Assembly (NCBI GenBank): GCA_963804505.1
Contig: CAWDQP010000007.1
Location: forward strand, 18,788-82,787
Reading direction: 5' to 3'
Length of the DNA: 64,000 nt
Origin: an uncultured Thermoplasmata archaeon
GTDB taxonomy: Archaea > Thermoplasmatota > Thermoplasmata > Lutacidiplasmatales > UBA184
In this document: positions 3,039 through 57,442 of the stretch, in pieces
How positions within the stretch are numbered: position 1 is the first letter of the stretch
Layout of the letters: each line of letters opens with the position of its first letter
Notes under the pieces: generated by a model
Told to the model about the DNA's origin: nothing
The model's database searches: none
What the model saw: the letters and a program-made list of their open reading frames with translations, nothing else
Made by a program: the position numbers and the translations under genes

Positions 3039-3849
3039 CTAGCCTCCGGTCCCTTGCGGCGCCTGGGCGAGCCTCAGTGCTCGGGAGTGCCCGAGTATCG
3101 CCGCGCCGAGGGCGGCCGCATAGTACGCGTCGGGCGCGACGTTGACGTCCATGCCGACCGTGTCGTGGAGGGCCTTCACCATGCCGACGTTGCGAACGAG
3201 ACCTCCCACGAGCGTGACCTCCGGCTGGATCCCTACGGTACCGCATGAGAGAGAACGCGCGCTGGGCGAGGGAGAGGAAGACGCCCATCAGGATGTCCGG
3301 GAAAAGGACTCCCTCCGCGACGTTGTTGATGATCTCGGTCTCGGCCAGGACCGCGCAGACGCTGGAGATGAGCTTCGGGTGCTCGGACGCGAGCGCCTTG
3401 GGCCCCATCTCCTCCAGGGGGACCTGGAGGTACTTCGAACATCGCTCGACGAAGCGACCGGCTCCCGCGGCGCACTTCTCGTTCATCTTGAACTTGAGCA
3501 CCTTTCCCGTCGCGGAAACGGACATCGTCCGGGAGGCCTGCGTGCCCACGTCGACGACCAGTCGGGTCTTGGGGAAGAGGAAGACCGCGCCGCGCGCCGA
3601 GGACGTGAAATCGCTGACCTGCAGGTTCCGTTCGGGGATCGTGTACCGACCGAAGCCGGTCGTGCAGAGGTACTCGACGTCGTCCGGGGCGATGTTCGCC
3701 GCCTCCTCCAGCTCGTCCATCACGTGCCGAGCGGCGTGCACCGGTATGCCCCGCGACGGGGCGGAGGTGGTCGCGAGGATACGCCGACCGTCTTCGAGCA
3801 ACACGCCCTTGACGACCCCGGCACCGAGGTCGAGCCCGCCGGTGATCAC
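3039..3849 (-). CDS. bcrD: ASKHA ATPase activator subunit (BcrD/BzdP-like; frameshift ~3240)
   Basis: GLDLGAG, TGFGR, DVGTQ, MNEKCAAGAGRF, SSVCAVLAETE. Start overlaps the upstream stop as GTGA. Confidence 0.75.
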
Positions 3850-52036: not shown

Positions 52037-52239
52037 GCTCGAGACGACCGGCTTTGAAACTTAACCTCGGCGGGAGGCGTTCATGAAACAGAACTGGACC
52101 TGCCTGAAACAAAACCTGATGCCCGGTCCGACCGAGCTTCTCTTAGAGGGACTACCCGAAACGAGAGGCAGCGTTTGGGATCACGCTCGGTTCTCGGGCC
52201 ACTCCAGTCAACGTCACGGCGAGGTGAACCGATTCGAAG

Positions 52240-52320
52240 GGTCCTGTTCCAATTCGCGAGGTCCGTCCCGGGCCTATCGGCGAGGCCGGCCTCCTCACCC
52301 CGCGAATCCGCAACAGAGCC
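52240..52320. repeat. 81-bp palindromic repeat, copy 1
   Basis: Identical to 53079-53159. Ends GGTCCTGTTCCAATTCGCG and CGCGAATCCGCAACAGAGCC form an imperfect inverted repeat. Confidence 0.95.
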
Positions 52321-52451
52321 AGATTCGGGTAAGTTTTTTGATACCGAAAACGAGATTACTCTTGGAATGGACTTCGCATCATTGGGCCTCGACTACGCTA
52401 TATCCGGAAAGATCTGGGACTAAATCGTCCGCGGTCGGCTCAGGTGTCAAG

Positions 52452-53006
52452 ATGGTCAGGTTTGAGCTGCAAGACTTTCAGCGACGGGTGTGGCGTGCGA
52501 CTCGATCGAACGTAACCCACCCCATGGGAATGACATTCGTTGTTCTGCTCGTGGGGTTCGGGGCGTACATCTCGTTTCGGAGCCTCGAAGCTGGCCAGTT
52601 TCCCACCACGCTTGTCAACCTCGGGCTGATTGGAGGCCTTGCCGTAATGGTTTATCTGTTGTTCGTTCTTCGGACGGCCGTTGGTCCCGAGTTTGTCGAT
52701 ATAGATAACCAGGGAGTGCGGTTTACGTTTAACTCGCACTCGGTTCACTCCTTCTGCTGGGACGATCCGGAATTCCGCCTCTGGCTCAGGTTCCTAACTG
52801 ACAACAGACTGCCAGGACCCGATCAGGATGTCTGCTGGATTTGGGGTCGTGGTCTCTGGCCGAAAACTCTGCCGGTTCCAGTTCCTGTGGCTGAACGGAT
52901 GCTAGCGGAAGCCAAAGCAAACCGACTCGAAGTACATTCAAAGTACCCCGGCAGCGGACCATCGGGTGGAATCGGGATGTACCAGCTTCGTGCTCCCAGT
53001 CATTAA
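52452..53006 (+). CDS. Two-TM membrane protein with a PH-like soluble domain (transposon cargo)
   Basis: AGGTG RBS-like sequence before the ATG, two hydrophobic helices, then VDIDNQGVRF..FCWDD. Confidence 0.65.
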   Translation: MVRFELQDFQRRVWRATRSNVTHPMGMTFVVLLVGFGAYISFRSLEAGQFPTTLVNLGLIGGLAVMVYLLFVLRTAVGPEFVDIDNQGVRFTFNSHSVHSFCWDDPEFRLWLRFLTDNRLPGPDQDVCWIWGRGLWPKTLPVPVPVAERMLAEAKANRLEVHSKYPGSGPSGGIGMYQLRAPSH

Positions 53007-53078
53007 AGCTTGTATGATGAGGATTAAGTGACAGCAACCGAAAGTCTTACGATAGAAGTGCGATTCGGACCGAAGAGC

Positions 53079-53159
53079 GGTCCTGTTCCAATTCGCGAGG
53101 TCCGTCCCGGGCCTATCGGCGAGGCCGGCCTCCTCACCCCGCGAATCCGCAACAGAGCC
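53079..53159. repeat. 81-bp palindromic repeat, copy 2 (direct orientation)
   Basis: Identical to 52240-52320. Confidence 0.95.
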
Positions 53160-53208
53160 GTCCGTAGGGAGGATCCTTCTATGAGAAAGCACGACGGCCG
53201 AAGAATCG

Positions 53209-53403
53209 TCAGTCTCGCTTAGACGACTTTGGTTTGGGCCCGACCGATACGGTCACCCGCAACGAGCCAGGCTCGACCTCCCAAACTAAGGTAGAGCCGG
53301 GGACAGCGCCGAGAATCGCAGCGACCGCCTCAGGGACGGTCGCCCGGACAGATGGGGACCCGGGAACAGTCCGGAGGACTTTGGACGTGAACTTGCTGAC
53401 CAT
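53209..53403 (-). CDS. AbrB/MazE/SpoVT-like small DNA-binding protein
   Basis: SVRATVPEAVAAILGAVPGSTLVWEV fits the swapped-hairpin pattern. Divergent from the transposase. Confidence 0.65.
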   Translation of the reverse strand: MVSKFTSKVLRTVPGSPSVRATVPEAVAAILGAVPGSTLVWEVEPGSLRVTVSVGPKPKSSKRD

Positions 53404-53527
53404 GCCGCCGCTCGGTGAGGCACACCCCTACAGGAATAAATGCGTTGGCTATCACATACGCCAATACATTGGCCTTAAGTACTCTCGAACTATAGGGCAA
53501 TACAGTAGCCAATATCGGGGGCAAACA

Positions 53528-54763
53528 ATGGAGCAAGATGCGATGACAGCACCTCGGGACAACCGATCGGTGCAGGCGAAGGAGATCGCCTCGCGTCGAG
53601 ATGAGATTGAGCCCCTGGGTGAGAACGACTGGTCGATTCCTTCACAATCAGGCTTCGGGCGGTACCGAGTCAATCTGCGCGAAGGAGGGTGGGTCTGCGG
53701 CTGCCAAGACTTTGCGAAGCGCGGCCTGCCGTGTAAACACATTCTCGCCGTGCTGGAGCTGAGCCGCCCGACGCCGCCGATCGCCCCCGCCCCCCGGAAG
53801 CAGTACCGCCAGCACCCCACTTACACGAAGGGCCAGACGGCCGAGATGCGGCTCCTCAACGAACTCCTCCGAGATCTCGTAAGGGAAGTTCCTGATTTTC
53901 CTGCGACGCCGGGGGTCGGGGGTCGGCCAGCCCTCCCACTTTCTGAGAGCCTTTACTGCGCGATTCTCAAGGTCTACTCCGGTCTCTCGGGACGGCGCGC
54001 GTGTGGGGTCTACGAAAACGTACACGACCGGGAGTTGCTCAGCCGAGTTCCGAACTACATGGTCGCTTCCCGCGCCCTCAACCGACCCGAAGTAACGTCG
54101 ATCCTCTACCGCCTTCTCTCGCTCTCCGCAGCCCCGCTCGCCGGACTTGAAGACGGGGGAGTTGTCGCGCCTGATTCGACCGGCGTTCAGACGACTTCCT
54201 TCGGAAGCTGGCGAGAAGAGAAGCACGGTGAGAAACGCCAGAAGATGTGGCTCAAGGTTCACGCGCTGGTCGGGACCAAGACCCATGTGATCATACGAGC
54301 ATTCGTGGGCGGGGCAGACTCGAATGATTCGCCGTTCTTCATCCCTCTCCTTCGCGACAGCCTCGGGTCCGGCTTCCGACCCTCGGCTGTCGTGGCAGAC
54401 AAGGGGTATCTCTCGAAGGACAACTACCGAGTCGCTTCAGAGCTGGGACTCGACGCGTACATCCCATTCAAGTCGAACTCGGTGAACCGGTCGGGTACCC
54501 ATGGGAGCCCACCATCTTGGCGGAAGGCGTTCTACATGTTCCAGGCCAACCGGGACGTATTCGAACAGAGTTACCACCGCCGGTCGAACGTCGAATCCGT
54601 CTTCTCGGCGCTCAAGCGAAAATTCGGGGAGAACATCCGCTCCCGAACCCACGTAGCTCAGGTAAACGAAATCCTCTGCAAGCTGATCGCGTACAACCTC
54701 ACGGTGGTCGTCCATGAGATGTTCGAGAACGGGATCGTCCCCGTCTTCTCAGTTGAGAGTTAA
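53528..54763 (+). CDS. Transposase: N-terminal SWIM Zn finger plus an IS4/IS5-superfamily DDE domain
   Basis: CGCQDF..PCKH (SWIM), PDSTG, WLKVH, ADKGY, YHRRSNVESVFSALKRKFG (Y-2-R-3-E-6-K signature). Confidence 0.9.
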   Translation: MEQDAMTAPRDNRSVQAKEIASRRDEIEPLGENDWSIPSQSGFGRYRVNLREGGWVCGCQDFAKRGLPCKHILAVLELSRPTPPIAPAPRKQYRQHPTYTKGQTAEMRLLNELLRDLVREVPDFPATPGVGGRPALPLSESLYCAILKVYSGLSGRRACGVYENVHDRELLSRVPNYMVASRALNRPEVTSILYRLLSLSAAPLAGLEDGGVVAPDSTGVQTTSFGSWREEKHGEKRQKMWLKVHALVGTKTHVIIRAFVGGADSNDSPFFIPLLRDSLGSGFRPSAVVADKGYLSKDNYRVASELGLDAYIPFKSNSVNRSGTHGSPPSWRKAFYMFQANRDVFEQSYHRRSNVESVFSALKRKFGENIRSRTHVAQVNEILCKLIAYNLTVVVHEMFENGIVPVFSVES

Positions 54764-55770
54764 GATGTCGTTCGCGGGCCGGGCGGTGAACCGCTAGGGG
54801 GCACGCCCAATGGGGGCGGCGTCGGGCCCCCCCTTGGGACAGGCGGCGTTGGCTGCGGTTGCCCGGCAGATGGCATCTGCATAAGTTGAACGGCCATGTT
54901 CGCCGAGGTTTCGGAAGTCTCGAACAGCTTCGCGATGGCAGGATTCGACATGAATGCAGGAATCGTCCTGAGGTAGTACTCCCAGACGAGTGACCACCGT
55001 TCATCGTCGTGGGGCCAGAAGTCCACGTTGAGTTTCAACGCTGTCGTTGCATCCTCTCTATTGATTACGCTGCCGTGAAGCCCGTACCGACCGCCCGCGA
55101 CGAGTTGACTAACCGTGTTCGCAACGTCAGCAGGGGGACGGCCGTTCATCGCTCCAACGGGCAACCAACGCCGAGCAAAATCCTCGGAAAACTGAATCAG
55201 GTCGACGCACATTCCAATCATCTGTGGGGATAGCTGCTGTAGGACAGGGAAGTAGATCTGAATCGAAGAAGGATCAGCCCTCACCTTCTCGCGGATGATG
55301 TTGATCGCGTTGAGGTAGGCTCGCGCCGGAATCAACTGAGGCTGTCCAGCGGGGCCGACGGATTGAATCTGAGGGTCGATGGGCCCCAGTTCTGAGGCTT
55401 CCCCCATTACGATTCTGTCCGCTCCAAGTGACAGCATCGTTGCAGCACTCTTCGCGGATTGCGGCACGATGACTGAAAATCCCTCAGGGAACGCAGTCCG
55501 GCAGATTTGGATAATCTTCTCAGCGGTGTGGCCGTCGCCACCAGGGCTTTGGACCATCAGATAGACCTTCTTGCCGCGCTTCCTTGCCACATTGAGCATG
55601 TCTAGGACGAGCGGAACGTCCTGCGGAATCAACGACGACAACGGGTGAAGTGGGCTCGCGATGTATGTGGCGACTGGGGCGCCGAGTTTTTCTTCGAGTT
55701 TTTTCAGGATTGCCTGTCGCTTCTTGGCCCACCCCGGCGGTTTTGTTTCCTCAATAATGCTGTTGAACAT
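54760..55770 (-). CDS. SDH-family ClpP-fold serine protease (transposon cargo)
   Basis: QSPGGD...EKI, IVPQSAKSAATMLSLGADRI.MG..SELGPIDPQ, LHG. Pro-rich tail. Confidence 0.85.
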   Translation of the reverse strand: MFNSIIEETKPPGWAKKRQAILKKLEEKLGAPVATYIASPLHPLSSLIPQDVPLVLDMLNVARKRGKKVYLMVQSPGGDGHTAEKIIQICRTAFPEGFSVIVPQSAKSAATMLSLGADRIVMGEASELGPIDPQIQSVGPAGQPQLIPARAYLNAINIIREKVRADPSSIQIYFPVLQQLSPQMIGMCVDLIQFSEDFARRWLPVGAMNGRPPADVANTVSQLVAGGRYGLHGSVINREDATTALKLNVDFWPHDDERWSLVWEYYLRTIPAFMSNPAIAKLFETSETSANMAVQLMQMPSAGQPQPTPPVPRGGPTPPPLGVPPSGSPPGPRTTS

Positions 55771-55821
55771 ACGGCGACTCCCTGCCGCGATGTAAGAAAG
55801 GTCTCACTTAGATGAGTCGGG

Positions 55822-55977
55822 CTAGTTTGTTTCGTAGGTAATCGAGACACCAATAATGGCAGGGGCCGGCTGGGGTGGAATGATTCTCAGTAACTCAGCC
55901 AAATCAGTATTCTCACTGATTGCACGACGGAGCATCTCATCCACGATGCGGGCGAGCTCCTCGGCGCTTTCCGCCAC
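55822..55977 (-). CDS. Small (51-aa) hypothetical protein upstream of the protease
   Basis: GTG start, then helical AESAEELARIVDEMLRRAISEN and a PPQPAP..TYETN tail. Co-oriented, 52 bp upstream of the protease. Confidence 0.45.
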   Translation of the reverse strand: MAESAEELARIVDEMLRRAISENTDLAELLRIIPPQPAPAIIGVSITYETN

Positions 55978-56294
55978 AGGTGAGCCTTGAGGGCAAGCGC
56001 TAACGAAAAGGCTTGCGCCCTGACTTTCCTTATCCCTTGCTGCCTGCAAGAAGAGGGTAGGGCGAACGCCCCTTACTCGGGTCTGAGATTGAAACCGGAT
56101 TGGCGAGGCTGAAAACAGATGACCGAGTAAAGGTCGATCCCATCTTACCGTCGGTAGAACCGAGACCGGACTTATCTGAAACAGAACTCGACCGCGTGAA
56201 ACTAAACCCGCCCGGCCGAGGATGTTAAGTTTCAAAGCCGAGACGACCCAAGCCGTGATATAGCGGGTGCCCGTGGCACGCCGCCTTCCTCCTA

Positions 56295-57442
56295 ATGCCC
56301 GATTTCTCCCTCTCGCCCGAGCACGAGAGCCTCCGGGACATGGCCCGGAAATTTGCCCGGACGGAGATGGTCCCGCACGCGGCGGAATGCGACCGGACGG
56401 CCCGTTTTCCGGAAGAGATCTATCGCAAGGCCCACGCCCTGGGCCTAATGAACCTCAACGTACCGGCGGAGTGGGGCGGTAGCGGGCTCTCGCTGTTCGA
56501 GCAATGCCTGATCGTCGAGGAACTTGCCTACGCCTGCGGCGGCATGACGACCTCGATCATCGCCAACTGCCTCGCGCTCGAGCCGATCCTGCTCGGGGCC
56601 ACGCCCGAGCAAAAGAAGCGTTTCCTACCTTCGTTCTGCGCGGACTATCACCTGGCGTCGTTCTGCCTGACCGAACCCGGAGGGGGAGCGACGCGGGCGC
56701 GATCCGCACCCGCGCCCGGAAGGACGGGGACGAGTACATCCTGGACGGCGAGAAGTGCTTCATCACCAACGCCCCCCACGCGTCGCTCTACACCGTGTTC
56801 GCGACGCTCGACCCGCAGCAACGCCACCGGGGGATCAGCGCGTTCGTGGTGCCGCGCTCGGCGAAGGGCCTATCCCCGGGCAAGGACGAGGAGAAGATGG
56901 GCCATCGCGCCTCGTCGACCAGCACGGTTCGCTTCGAGGGCGTGCGTGTTCCAGCCGCCGACCGATTGGGCGAGGAGGGGGAGGGGTTCTCGCTCGCGAT
57001 GCGGACCCTCGACATGACCCGCACCCCGATCGGTGCTTTGGCCACGGGCATCGCCCAGGCGGCGCTCGACCACGCGGCGCGCTACGCCCTGAAGCGCGAG
57101 ACCTTCGGCAAGCCGATCGCCGAGCATCAAGCGATCCAGATCAAGCTCGCCAACATGGCCCAGGCGGTACACGCGGCGCGCCTCCTGAGCTGGCACGCCG
57201 CCTGGACCATCGACGGCGGCCAGAAGGGGACGCTCGAATCGTCCATCGCGAAGTGCTTCGCTTCGGACGCGGCGCTCCACGTGGCCGACGAGGCGATCCA
57301 GACCTTCGGCGGGTACGGCTACATGAAGGAGTACCCGGTCGAGAAGCTCCTGCGGGATGCGAAGCTCACCCAGATCTACGAAGGGGCGAACGAGATCCAG
57401 CGCACCGTGATCGCCCGCGAGCTGCTCCGTGGCTACTCCTAG
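56295..57442 (+). CDS. Acyl-CoA dehydrogenase (frameshift ~56685)
   Basis: [40 protein letters not shown]. Confidence 0.95.

Follow-up and report, generated by a model that had tools for sequence, protein, structure and literature searches.

A cargo-carrying relative of IS903 in a Thermoplasmata soil archaeon, and the target sites of its family at predicted promoter edges

We analysed a 64,000-nucleotide stretch of DNA from an uncultured Thermoplasmata archaeon (hereafter the window; GenBank assembly GCA_963804505.1, contig CAWDQP010000007.1, C7:18788-82787), taken from an assembly of 1.85 Mb in 11 contigs that is 58% complete. Positions 52050-56239 of the window are an intact 4190-bp element, carried by a soil archaeon, that is a cargo-carrying relative of the insertion sequence (IS) IS903. 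The element is very probably an autonomous IS903-related DNA transposon whose insertion has a LarB-like gene on one side and, on the other, the promoter of a gene for acyl-CoA dehydrogenase (ACAD). An earlier note, made from the letters of the window, had proposed a mobile cargo transposon at this place. New here, and absent from that note, are a promoter-edge target rule, recurrent insertion at the same sites, tandem arrays, and ends with several motif copies in an asymmetric layout.

The terminal inverted repeats (TIRs) of the element are perfect over 16 bp. The left TIR (52050-52065, + strand, GGCTTTGAAACTTAAC) can be extended imperfectly to 52074 and holds the first copy of an 11-nt end motif at 52055-52065, and the right TIR (56224-56239, - strand) is its exact reverse complement; a repeat search carried the inverted repeat to 25 nt at 88% identity. 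We give the element ends as GGCTTTGAAAC. Immediately outside them lie the two copies of a 9-bp target-site duplication (TSD), GAGACGACC, at 52041-52049 and 56240-56248, which are identical over all nine positions and correspond to a single homologous copy in the empty sites of congeners. Without mismatch, the TIR 16-mer was found at only two places in the whole 1.85-Mb assembly, the two element ends, and the G+C content falls from ~ 0.70 in the flanks to 0.55-0.60 (about 57%) exactly between them. The earlier note had kept an alternative reading of a 17-bp TIR with a 7-bp TSD, which family-wide boundaries rule out: in all 21 delimited elements described below, a 9-bp direct repeat is followed at once by GG or GA, and in the others no complementarity exists at the base outside the tip. 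A second member in the same genome (C11:70073-74253, 4181 bp) illustrates these boundaries with CCCCCCTTC / GGCTTT...AAAGCC / CCCCCCTTC.

To look for empty sites, as the earlier note had asked, a 7.7-kb query spanning the element was compared with 40 relatives. Both flanks lay on one contig in 22 congeners, and in 17 of these (16 of 21 without the unpublished genome G019) the gap was within 8 bp of the element-free expectation, with the flanks abutting at a single target copy. The junction reads ...CGGCACGACC / CAAGCCGTGATATAGCG in G021 (its right side is also given as CAAGCCGTGATATAG) and ...GGGGACGACC / CAAGCCGTG in G017; each has one target copy, diverged as expected at ~ 80% flank identity. 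Among the non-empty congeners, in G007 (+5190 bp) the identical position is taken by a non-autonomous copy of 759 bp that has the same ends, in G015 (+4512 bp) a decayed copy is found, and the gaps in G011, G001 and G014 are +909, +97 and +55 bp. Among the sequencing runs, no RNA run was listed as a carrier, and contigs from four soil-metagenome DNA runs of one study contain both element junctions; no joint across the empty site was found in those contigs, which drop rare variants, so this is no sign of fixation. The proposal of a mobile element with TIRs and a TSD is thus borne out by perfect 16-bp ends, a 9-bp duplication and empty sites in relatives. The further claim of a recent insertion fits the perfect ends and duplication, the intact transposase and the unameliorated G+C content, and the age itself is not datable. 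We rejected the candidate explanation of a domesticated transposase in a defence island on the grounds of the ends, the duplications, the empty sites, the non-autonomous derivatives and the tandem insertions. No tRNA turned up when the window and seven related loci were scanned, which rules out a tRNA-targeting integrative element.

The central gene of the element (53528-54763, + strand) encodes a 411-aa transposase that combines a SWIM zinc finger with an IS903-like DDE core, as identified by Pfam, NCBIfam, alignment and fold. Against Pfam, SWIM (PF04434) was matched at E 2.5e-9 with 36.9 bits (cut-off 19.6), and DDE_Tnp_1 (PF01609) at E 7.8e-28 with 98 bits. In an alignment of 41 family members, the SWIM signature CxCx(n)CxH (C57, C59, C69, H71), the catalytic triad D216, D291, E356 and the residues Y349-R352-E356-K363 are invariant, and the window protein possesses every family-invariant residue. 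An AF2 model of the transposase had a pLDDT of 80.4, and its matches in the PDB were DDE transposases, none of them close (ISCth4 at E 1.6e-5; Tn5 at TMq 0.42). Database names of 120 homologues read only 'transposase' or 'hypothetical protein'.

The likeness to IS903 that the earlier note had pointed out was confirmed from several sides. IS903 and IS903B belong to the IS903 group of the IS5 family, are enterobacterial, and flank Tn903. In a tblastn search of 72,556 plasmids, the best-covering annotated relative was IS903B, with 27% identity over 271 aa (E 5e-16; residues 126-390 against IS903B 55-308). The copy on NZ_AP026383 is 1057 bp long with one gene, ends GGCTTTGTTGAATAAATCG and a 9-bp TSD. 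Both the Y(2)R(3)E(6)K signature of the IS903 group and its combination of TIRs beginning GGC with a 9-bp duplication are present in the window element, whose tips read GGCTTTG, and both proteins share NF033579 as their best NCBIfam model. IS903B scores 357.6 bits on that model and the window protein 129.1 (four relatives, 117-137), which is below the cut-off of 140, yet NF033579 is by far the best IS model, with other IS5 models at or below 41.5 bits. The window transposase is, on sequence comparison, an IS903-type outlier with about 125 extra N-terminal residues, which include the SWIM zinc finger. The element also departs from IS903 in its archaeal host, in its insertion at a promoter edge, in a conserved divergent AbrB-like gene and in its three motif copies per end in asymmetric layout. 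It is not a simple IS of ~ 1 kb with a transposase gene only: IS903 has 1057 bp and one gene, whereas the present element has 4190 bp with four or five further open reading frames (ORFs), and outside the transposase gene the family always has another 1.8-11 kb, in agreement with what had been claimed.

Divergent from the transposase gene lies a gene for a 64-aa AbrB/SpoVT/MazE-like protein (53209-53403, - strand), assigned from PF04014, tblastn and a PDB profile search. A homologue was found by tblastn at the same divergent position in 12 of 19 autonomous elements, down to 39% transposase identity. When the small partner proteins were aligned, 10/10 matched PF04014 (E up to 0.01, best 3.7e-8), and their profile matched AbrB-family regulators in the PDB (5itj/2l66/5itm, E 0.0025). 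The 124-bp region between the two genes (53404-53527) has TATA-like boxes for both and three GSCAATAY repeats (53460, 53496 and 53508) over the transposase-proximal box, and is conserved in the two closest relatives. The AbrB-like protein is predicted to regulate expression of the transposase, with the region between the genes as candidate operator.

The element ends carry more than the TIRs. The motif TGAAACWRAAC has eight matches in the 64-kb window, where 0.75 would be expected, and all of them fall within the element, six at most 66 nt from the tips. On the left, two subterminal copies (52084-52094 and 52105-52115, + strand) follow the TIR copy in the same direction and are putative extra transposase-binding sites. 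On the right, the two subterminal copies (56177-56187 and 56197-56207, + strand) are inverted relative to the copy in the TIR, so that the ends are dissimilar: three in one direction on the left, and one opposing two on the right. Relatives retain this layout, and their motif co-varies with the TIR (TGAAAACGGAT in L023/L024, TGAATCAAAAC in G046/G002), as the binding sites of a co-evolving transposase would. Both the AbrB-like gene and the asymmetric motif arrays are conserved and are therefore part of the family core. The SWIM-DDE transposase, the divergent AbrB-like gene and cargo on either side, which the earlier note had listed, were all recovered, and the AbrB-like gene counts as a core gene of the family, not as a passenger.

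The family set comprises 21 delimited elements of 680 bp to 12.3 kb, from Thermoplasmata and one metagenome-assembled genome of Methanoregulaceae. All 21 have a 9-bp duplication (with 8/9 positions matching in two non-autonomous copies), and they start with GGCTTT in 19 cases and with GARGGTGTCG in the two most distant members (G004, G126). Nineteen are autonomous, with 3041-12270 bp and 2-14 further ORFs, and two are non-autonomous, at 759 and 680 bp. Transposase homologues (E up to 1e-20) were found in 44 of 121 genus genomes, with 1-5 matches each (43 of 120 without the unpublished G088). Distant relatives with 33-49% identity occur at 23 loci on viral contigs in IMG/VR, and 8 of the 15 full-length ones could be delimited, with GGCTTTGC ends and 9-bp duplications.

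Cargo varies from one family member to another. The second element of the same genome, whose transposase is 64% identical, carries an Eco29kI-type endonuclease and a methyltransferase. Seven of the 19 autonomous elements encode DNA methyltransferases, alone or with or fused to endonucleases, and ten encode a defence-type domain of any kind. Other such domains include PIN, an SspD-like PAPS reductase and a PDC-S45-like protease, and elements that already have a methyltransferase hold the HEPN, TIR-like and PD-T4-6-kinase domains. PADLOC matches in the cargo of relatives were type II methyltransferase and restriction endonuclease, ThsB-like TIR, PD-T4-6 kinase, PDC-S45 and SspD. In the remaining elements the cargo consists of surface-type Kelch/PKD proteins or a ThiF-like enzyme, or is not recognisable.

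We then asked where these elements had inserted. At the window site, the right copy of the duplication is abutted by what sequence and conservation indicate to be the ACAD promoter core (56249-56263, + strand), a B recognition element (BRE)-like CAAGCCG followed by the TATA-like box TGATATAG, and the ATG of the ACAD gene follows at 56295, 31 nt past the box. All seven congeners read retain the block CAAGCCGTGATATAGCG, but not the DNA upstream of it. Similar flanks were seen at other insertions: going outward from the duplication, one flank has purine-rich CRAA and then an A/T-rich octamer from +7 or +8. Examples are CAAGCCG-TGATATAG in the window, GCCGGG-TTTTAATA, ATAAAAC-CTATATAG, CCAAGAA-TCTTATAG and CAAACG-TTTATGTA. 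Formulated as an octamer with at least 6/8 A/T that starts at +6 to +8 on either flank, this rule is satisfied at 12 of 15 distinct sites, where the duplication ends 6-7 nt before the box. For comparison, 200,000 positions were drawn at random from the same host DNA; 5.6% of them satisfy the rule, as do 16.7% of those that have such a box no more than 40 nt away. Beyond the box, 11 of the 12 rule-fitting sites have an ORF of 70 aa or longer that begins another 8-129 nt outward.

A pattern of this kind could reflect survival, with insertions occurring anywhere and being tolerated only where they fall between the end of one gene and the core promoter of the next. In keeping with this explanation, the sites are short intergenic spacers in compact genomes, and an unrelated IS630-like element adjoins the same ACAD spacer in G020. 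Selection would leave the base-pair precision unexplained, as boxes start at +6 to +8 at 12/15 sites against 16.7% of random positions that have a box within 40 nt. The ACAD spacer upstream of the promoter is roughly 50-60 bp long, yet three insertions lie at identical phosphodiester positions within it, and tandem arrays re-use one 9-bp target exactly. We regard survival as an improbable explanation. The IS630-like remnant is an observation in its own right: in this other species, G020 (L011, C50 ~ 3110-3389), it is the C-terminal part of an IS630-type transposase and sits immediately upstream of the same ACAD promoter, a spacer that collects unrelated mobile elements too.

The recurrent use of single sites supports target choice independently of the rule. 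The ACAD promoter site is occupied by the window element, by L021 (whose transposase is 87% identical, with other cargo and in the opposite orientation), by the G007 miniature, which is oriented like L021 by its end types, and by the decayed G015 copy. The three family insertions with intact ends use identical phosphodiester positions. Two further sites are shared by G003/L024 and by G004/G126, each pair in opposite orientations, and G010/G011/L043m share a fourth. Four orthologous sites were struck independently in different species, three of them in both orientations. That the shared sites go back to one ancient insertion, inherited vertically or spread by recombination through the flanks and followed by turnover of cargo, appears very unlikely to us. 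The decayed G015 element would fit such a history, as its left end GGCATCGAATCTTAACCTCGGCGGGA is homologous to that of the window element and is oriented alike. Elements that face opposite ways at one position (window/L021, G003/L024, G004/G126) speak against a common insertion, as do duplications that differ in step with the local sequence and the 16-17 empty congeners, which include those with the most similar flanks (80% identity).

Tandem arrays give a second line of support that does not depend on the rule. At three loci, two or three different elements are separated by one shared 9-bp duplication. In G126 (L067, C7, 9186-19884), CCCTGACGG occurs at three element borders, and a 97-bp mini-element that consists of just the two ends is found at the inner border of the second element. 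In G041 (L086, C23, 554-3690), CGCACCCCG parts a 12.3-kb element from one of 3.1 kb and the latter from the beginning of a third, and in G011 (L019, C18, 3510-7630) a second element begins right after a shared GTGTGTCAT. Such arrays are expected if a new copy is placed by its distance from the promoter and so goes into the duplication of the previous copy. Together with the shared sites, the arrays are the strongest support for the target rule so far.

Two explanations of how the promoter edge might be found were weighed. The transposase, through its SWIM N-terminus or its AbrB-like partner, might dock on the transcription factors TBP and TFB at the BRE-TATA element and integrate one BRE-length upstream of the TATA box; we put this forward tentatively, at somewhat less than an even chance. 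A complex prediction of the transposase with the TFB core (residues 95-330) and TBP, all from the same genome, returned a score of 0.05 and a mark of 0.32, which weighs neither way. It is also conceivable, and a reading we hold with similar reserve, that the transposase or the AbrB-like partner reads the DNA directly, with a BRE/TATA core (cRAA-n-TTTAWATA) as preferred asymmetric target and no host factor. The target preference of IS903 extends beyond its duplication, the flank beside the duplication starts with purine-rich CRAA at most sites, and the putative binding motif of the transposase is itself A/T-rich (TGAAAC). Direct reading fits less well with boxes as diverse as TGATATAG, TTTTAATA, CTATATAG, TCTTATAG and TTTATGCA, which have little in common beyond promoter-likeness, and with a one-sided signal, as a transposase multimer would be expected to see both flanks.

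Taken as a working model, the DDE transposase would bind the TIR and the two further copies of the 11-nt motif at each end, and the layout of three copies in one direction on the left against one opposing two on the right would let it distinguish the ends. The element would be excised or copied and joined to a target cut with a 9-bp stagger, as in IS903, and the AbrB-like protein would most likely repress the shared control region. Target choice is not random in this model: whichever way the element faces, the staggered cut would be placed so that the duplication ends 6-7 nt, the length of one BRE, ahead of a TATA-like box, which would leave the core promoter of the gene intact and allow the same spot to be struck again. 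Cargo would ride along: in this element an SDH-family protease, a possible small upstream ORF and a membrane protein bracketed by an 81-nt repeat, and in the same slots of relatives restriction-modification and other defence genes. Anatomy, mobility and the site rule in this model come from the comparisons above; end binding, cleavage and strand transfer are modelled on IS903 and other DDE elements.

Several points weigh against parts of this account. A single copy of the element is present in the 58% complete assembly. On its own, the AbrB-like protein of the window matched PF04014 at only E 0.0044 and 17.4 bits (cut-off 24.7), and none of the five element proteins in the window matched the defence models of PADLOC-DB 2.0. 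The promoters are placed by sequence, spacing and conservation only. The target rule was fixed after the flanks had been seen and the genomes are kin, so the nominal binomial probabilities of 12/15 (4e-13 and 1e-7) are lower than they should be, by a factor that cannot be stated; even so, the effect remains large. Three of the 15 sites are off the rule: the G010/G011/L043m site, which has another conserved flank, CTCACGGTGTAGCA, G023 with an AT-rich box at +10, and G046 with 5/8 A/T. By eye, the eight delimited relatives on viral contigs have no clear box at the given distance. The G010/G011/L043 flank is a second kind of preferred site, outside the +7 rule. To the right of the elements in G010 (L029), G011 (L019) and L043, the host sequence CTCACRGTGTAGCA..TGTA is conserved, a TATATATA box follows ~ 54 nt on, and the duplications start with ATG.

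The cargo of the window element lies on both sides of its core genes. On the left, an ORF of 184 aa from ATG (52452-53006, + strand), in a frame open back to 52083, has two membrane helices predicted by eye and no match in Pfam, NCBIfam or PADLOC; its language-model look-alikes are small bacterial-PH-like membrane proteins, which we take as a lead only. On the right, a gene of 336 aa (54760-55770, - strand) encodes an SDH-family serine proteinase of the ClpP fold (PF01972, E 1.6e-10); this family is widespread in archaea and also supplies cargo of the element L025. Upstream of it, an open frame (55822-56235, - strand) of 137 aa from a TTG inside the right end, uncertain in its start and its reality, has no family match. 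The small ORFs upstream of the SDH-protease genes in the window and in L025 showed no mutual similarity, and because of this a two-gene protease module is not claimable.

The 184-aa ORF is bracketed by two identical copies of an 81-nt structured repeat (52240-52320 and 53079-53159, both + strand) at 839-bp spacing. The repeat is an imperfect palindrome, with conserved stems TTCGCGGGG/CCCCGCGAA and CTGTT/AACAG and a variable interior. It was found in only three of 61 genus genomes, as dispersed copies (loci L081, L082, L084), and a third copy (G000:C7:136785-136865, L003 1501-1581; 81% identical) lies just before a graspetide-type locus of the same genome. Its folding z-score is ~ -2.5 on either strand, and 3/27 pairs covary among five sequences, too little for an RNA call. 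Candidate roles are those of a small mobile repeat, of a site at which the bracketed gene recombines, or of a structured RNA. An Rfam scan of the element gave nothing but two C/D-box matches, both within the repeats and below threshold (23.8 against 40 bits), and a bacterial promoter and terminator scan, unsuited to archaea, found nothing above shuffled sequences.

Other observations concern relatives. A 7-kb member (L033 5431-12438, also in G052 and L046) encodes ParB-N/ParB-HTH, a proteasome-subunit-like gene and an SspD-like PAPS reductase (PADLOC SspD, 2.7e-32), and may carry a phosphorothioation-type defence module. The methyltransferase cargo at L016 8466-9741 (G013) is split into ORFs of 211 and 169 aa that correspond to the N- and C-terminal halves of PF01555 and is probably a frameshifted gene. 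A metagenome contig from run X2 tracks the window to 54735, the end of the transposase gene, and continues with ...GTGAAAACGGATGG, the end motif of another subgroup of the family, an indication that the same soil sample holds a related element lacking the right-hand cargo.

The earlier note had called this a poorly described archaeal family. Full-text searches, with subscription journals, ISfinder and TnCentral outside them, gave no account of IS903-like transposons with a SWIM-DDE transposase and cargo, nor of archaeal insertions at promoter edges, and the family looks undescribed in print. Krupovic et al. 2019 (PMC6563490) state that passenger-carrying DNA transposons were undetected in archaea; a 2025 preprint (10.1101/2025.07.27.667033) reports Tn7-family elements there, and PMC8649781 reports Tn7-like elements with defence cargo. 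Like 'transporter IS' (such as the IS1595 family) and the unit transposons Tn3 and Tn7, the present elements have one transposition module and one pair of ends around unrelated genes, and like Tn7-like elements they are rich in restriction-modification and defence cargo. They differ in having another transposase family, no resolvase and no TnsABC-type helpers. Among eukaryotic elements, yeast Ty3 and Ty1 integrate at a fixed distance from Pol III promoters through contacts with TFIIIB or Pol III. The outcome is alike, with a fixed, gene-sparing distance from the landing site of the transcription machinery and repeated use of places; Ty3 and Ty1 are retroelements with integrases, and tethering by transcription factors in the present family is a proposal only.

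The window thus contains an intact passenger-carrying archaeal transposon with an empty site in relatives, of a kind long thought missing from archaea according to PMC6563490. At least 21 delimited relatives make up its family, by which restriction-modification genes, genes of toxin-antitoxin type and others are moved between species, and more distant kin are found on viral contigs. If it is the promoter, or the factors sitting on it, that the element reads, this would explain harmless spread in a gene-dense genome and offer a testable handle on promoter recognition in archaea without genetics of their own. Should tethering prove true, the family would be the parallel among prokaryotic DNA transposons to the Pol III-tethered integration of Ty elements, with a harmless, re-usable landing pad for defence cargo before almost any archaeal gene, and it would provide a natural tool for base-precise, gene-sparing insertion in archaea.

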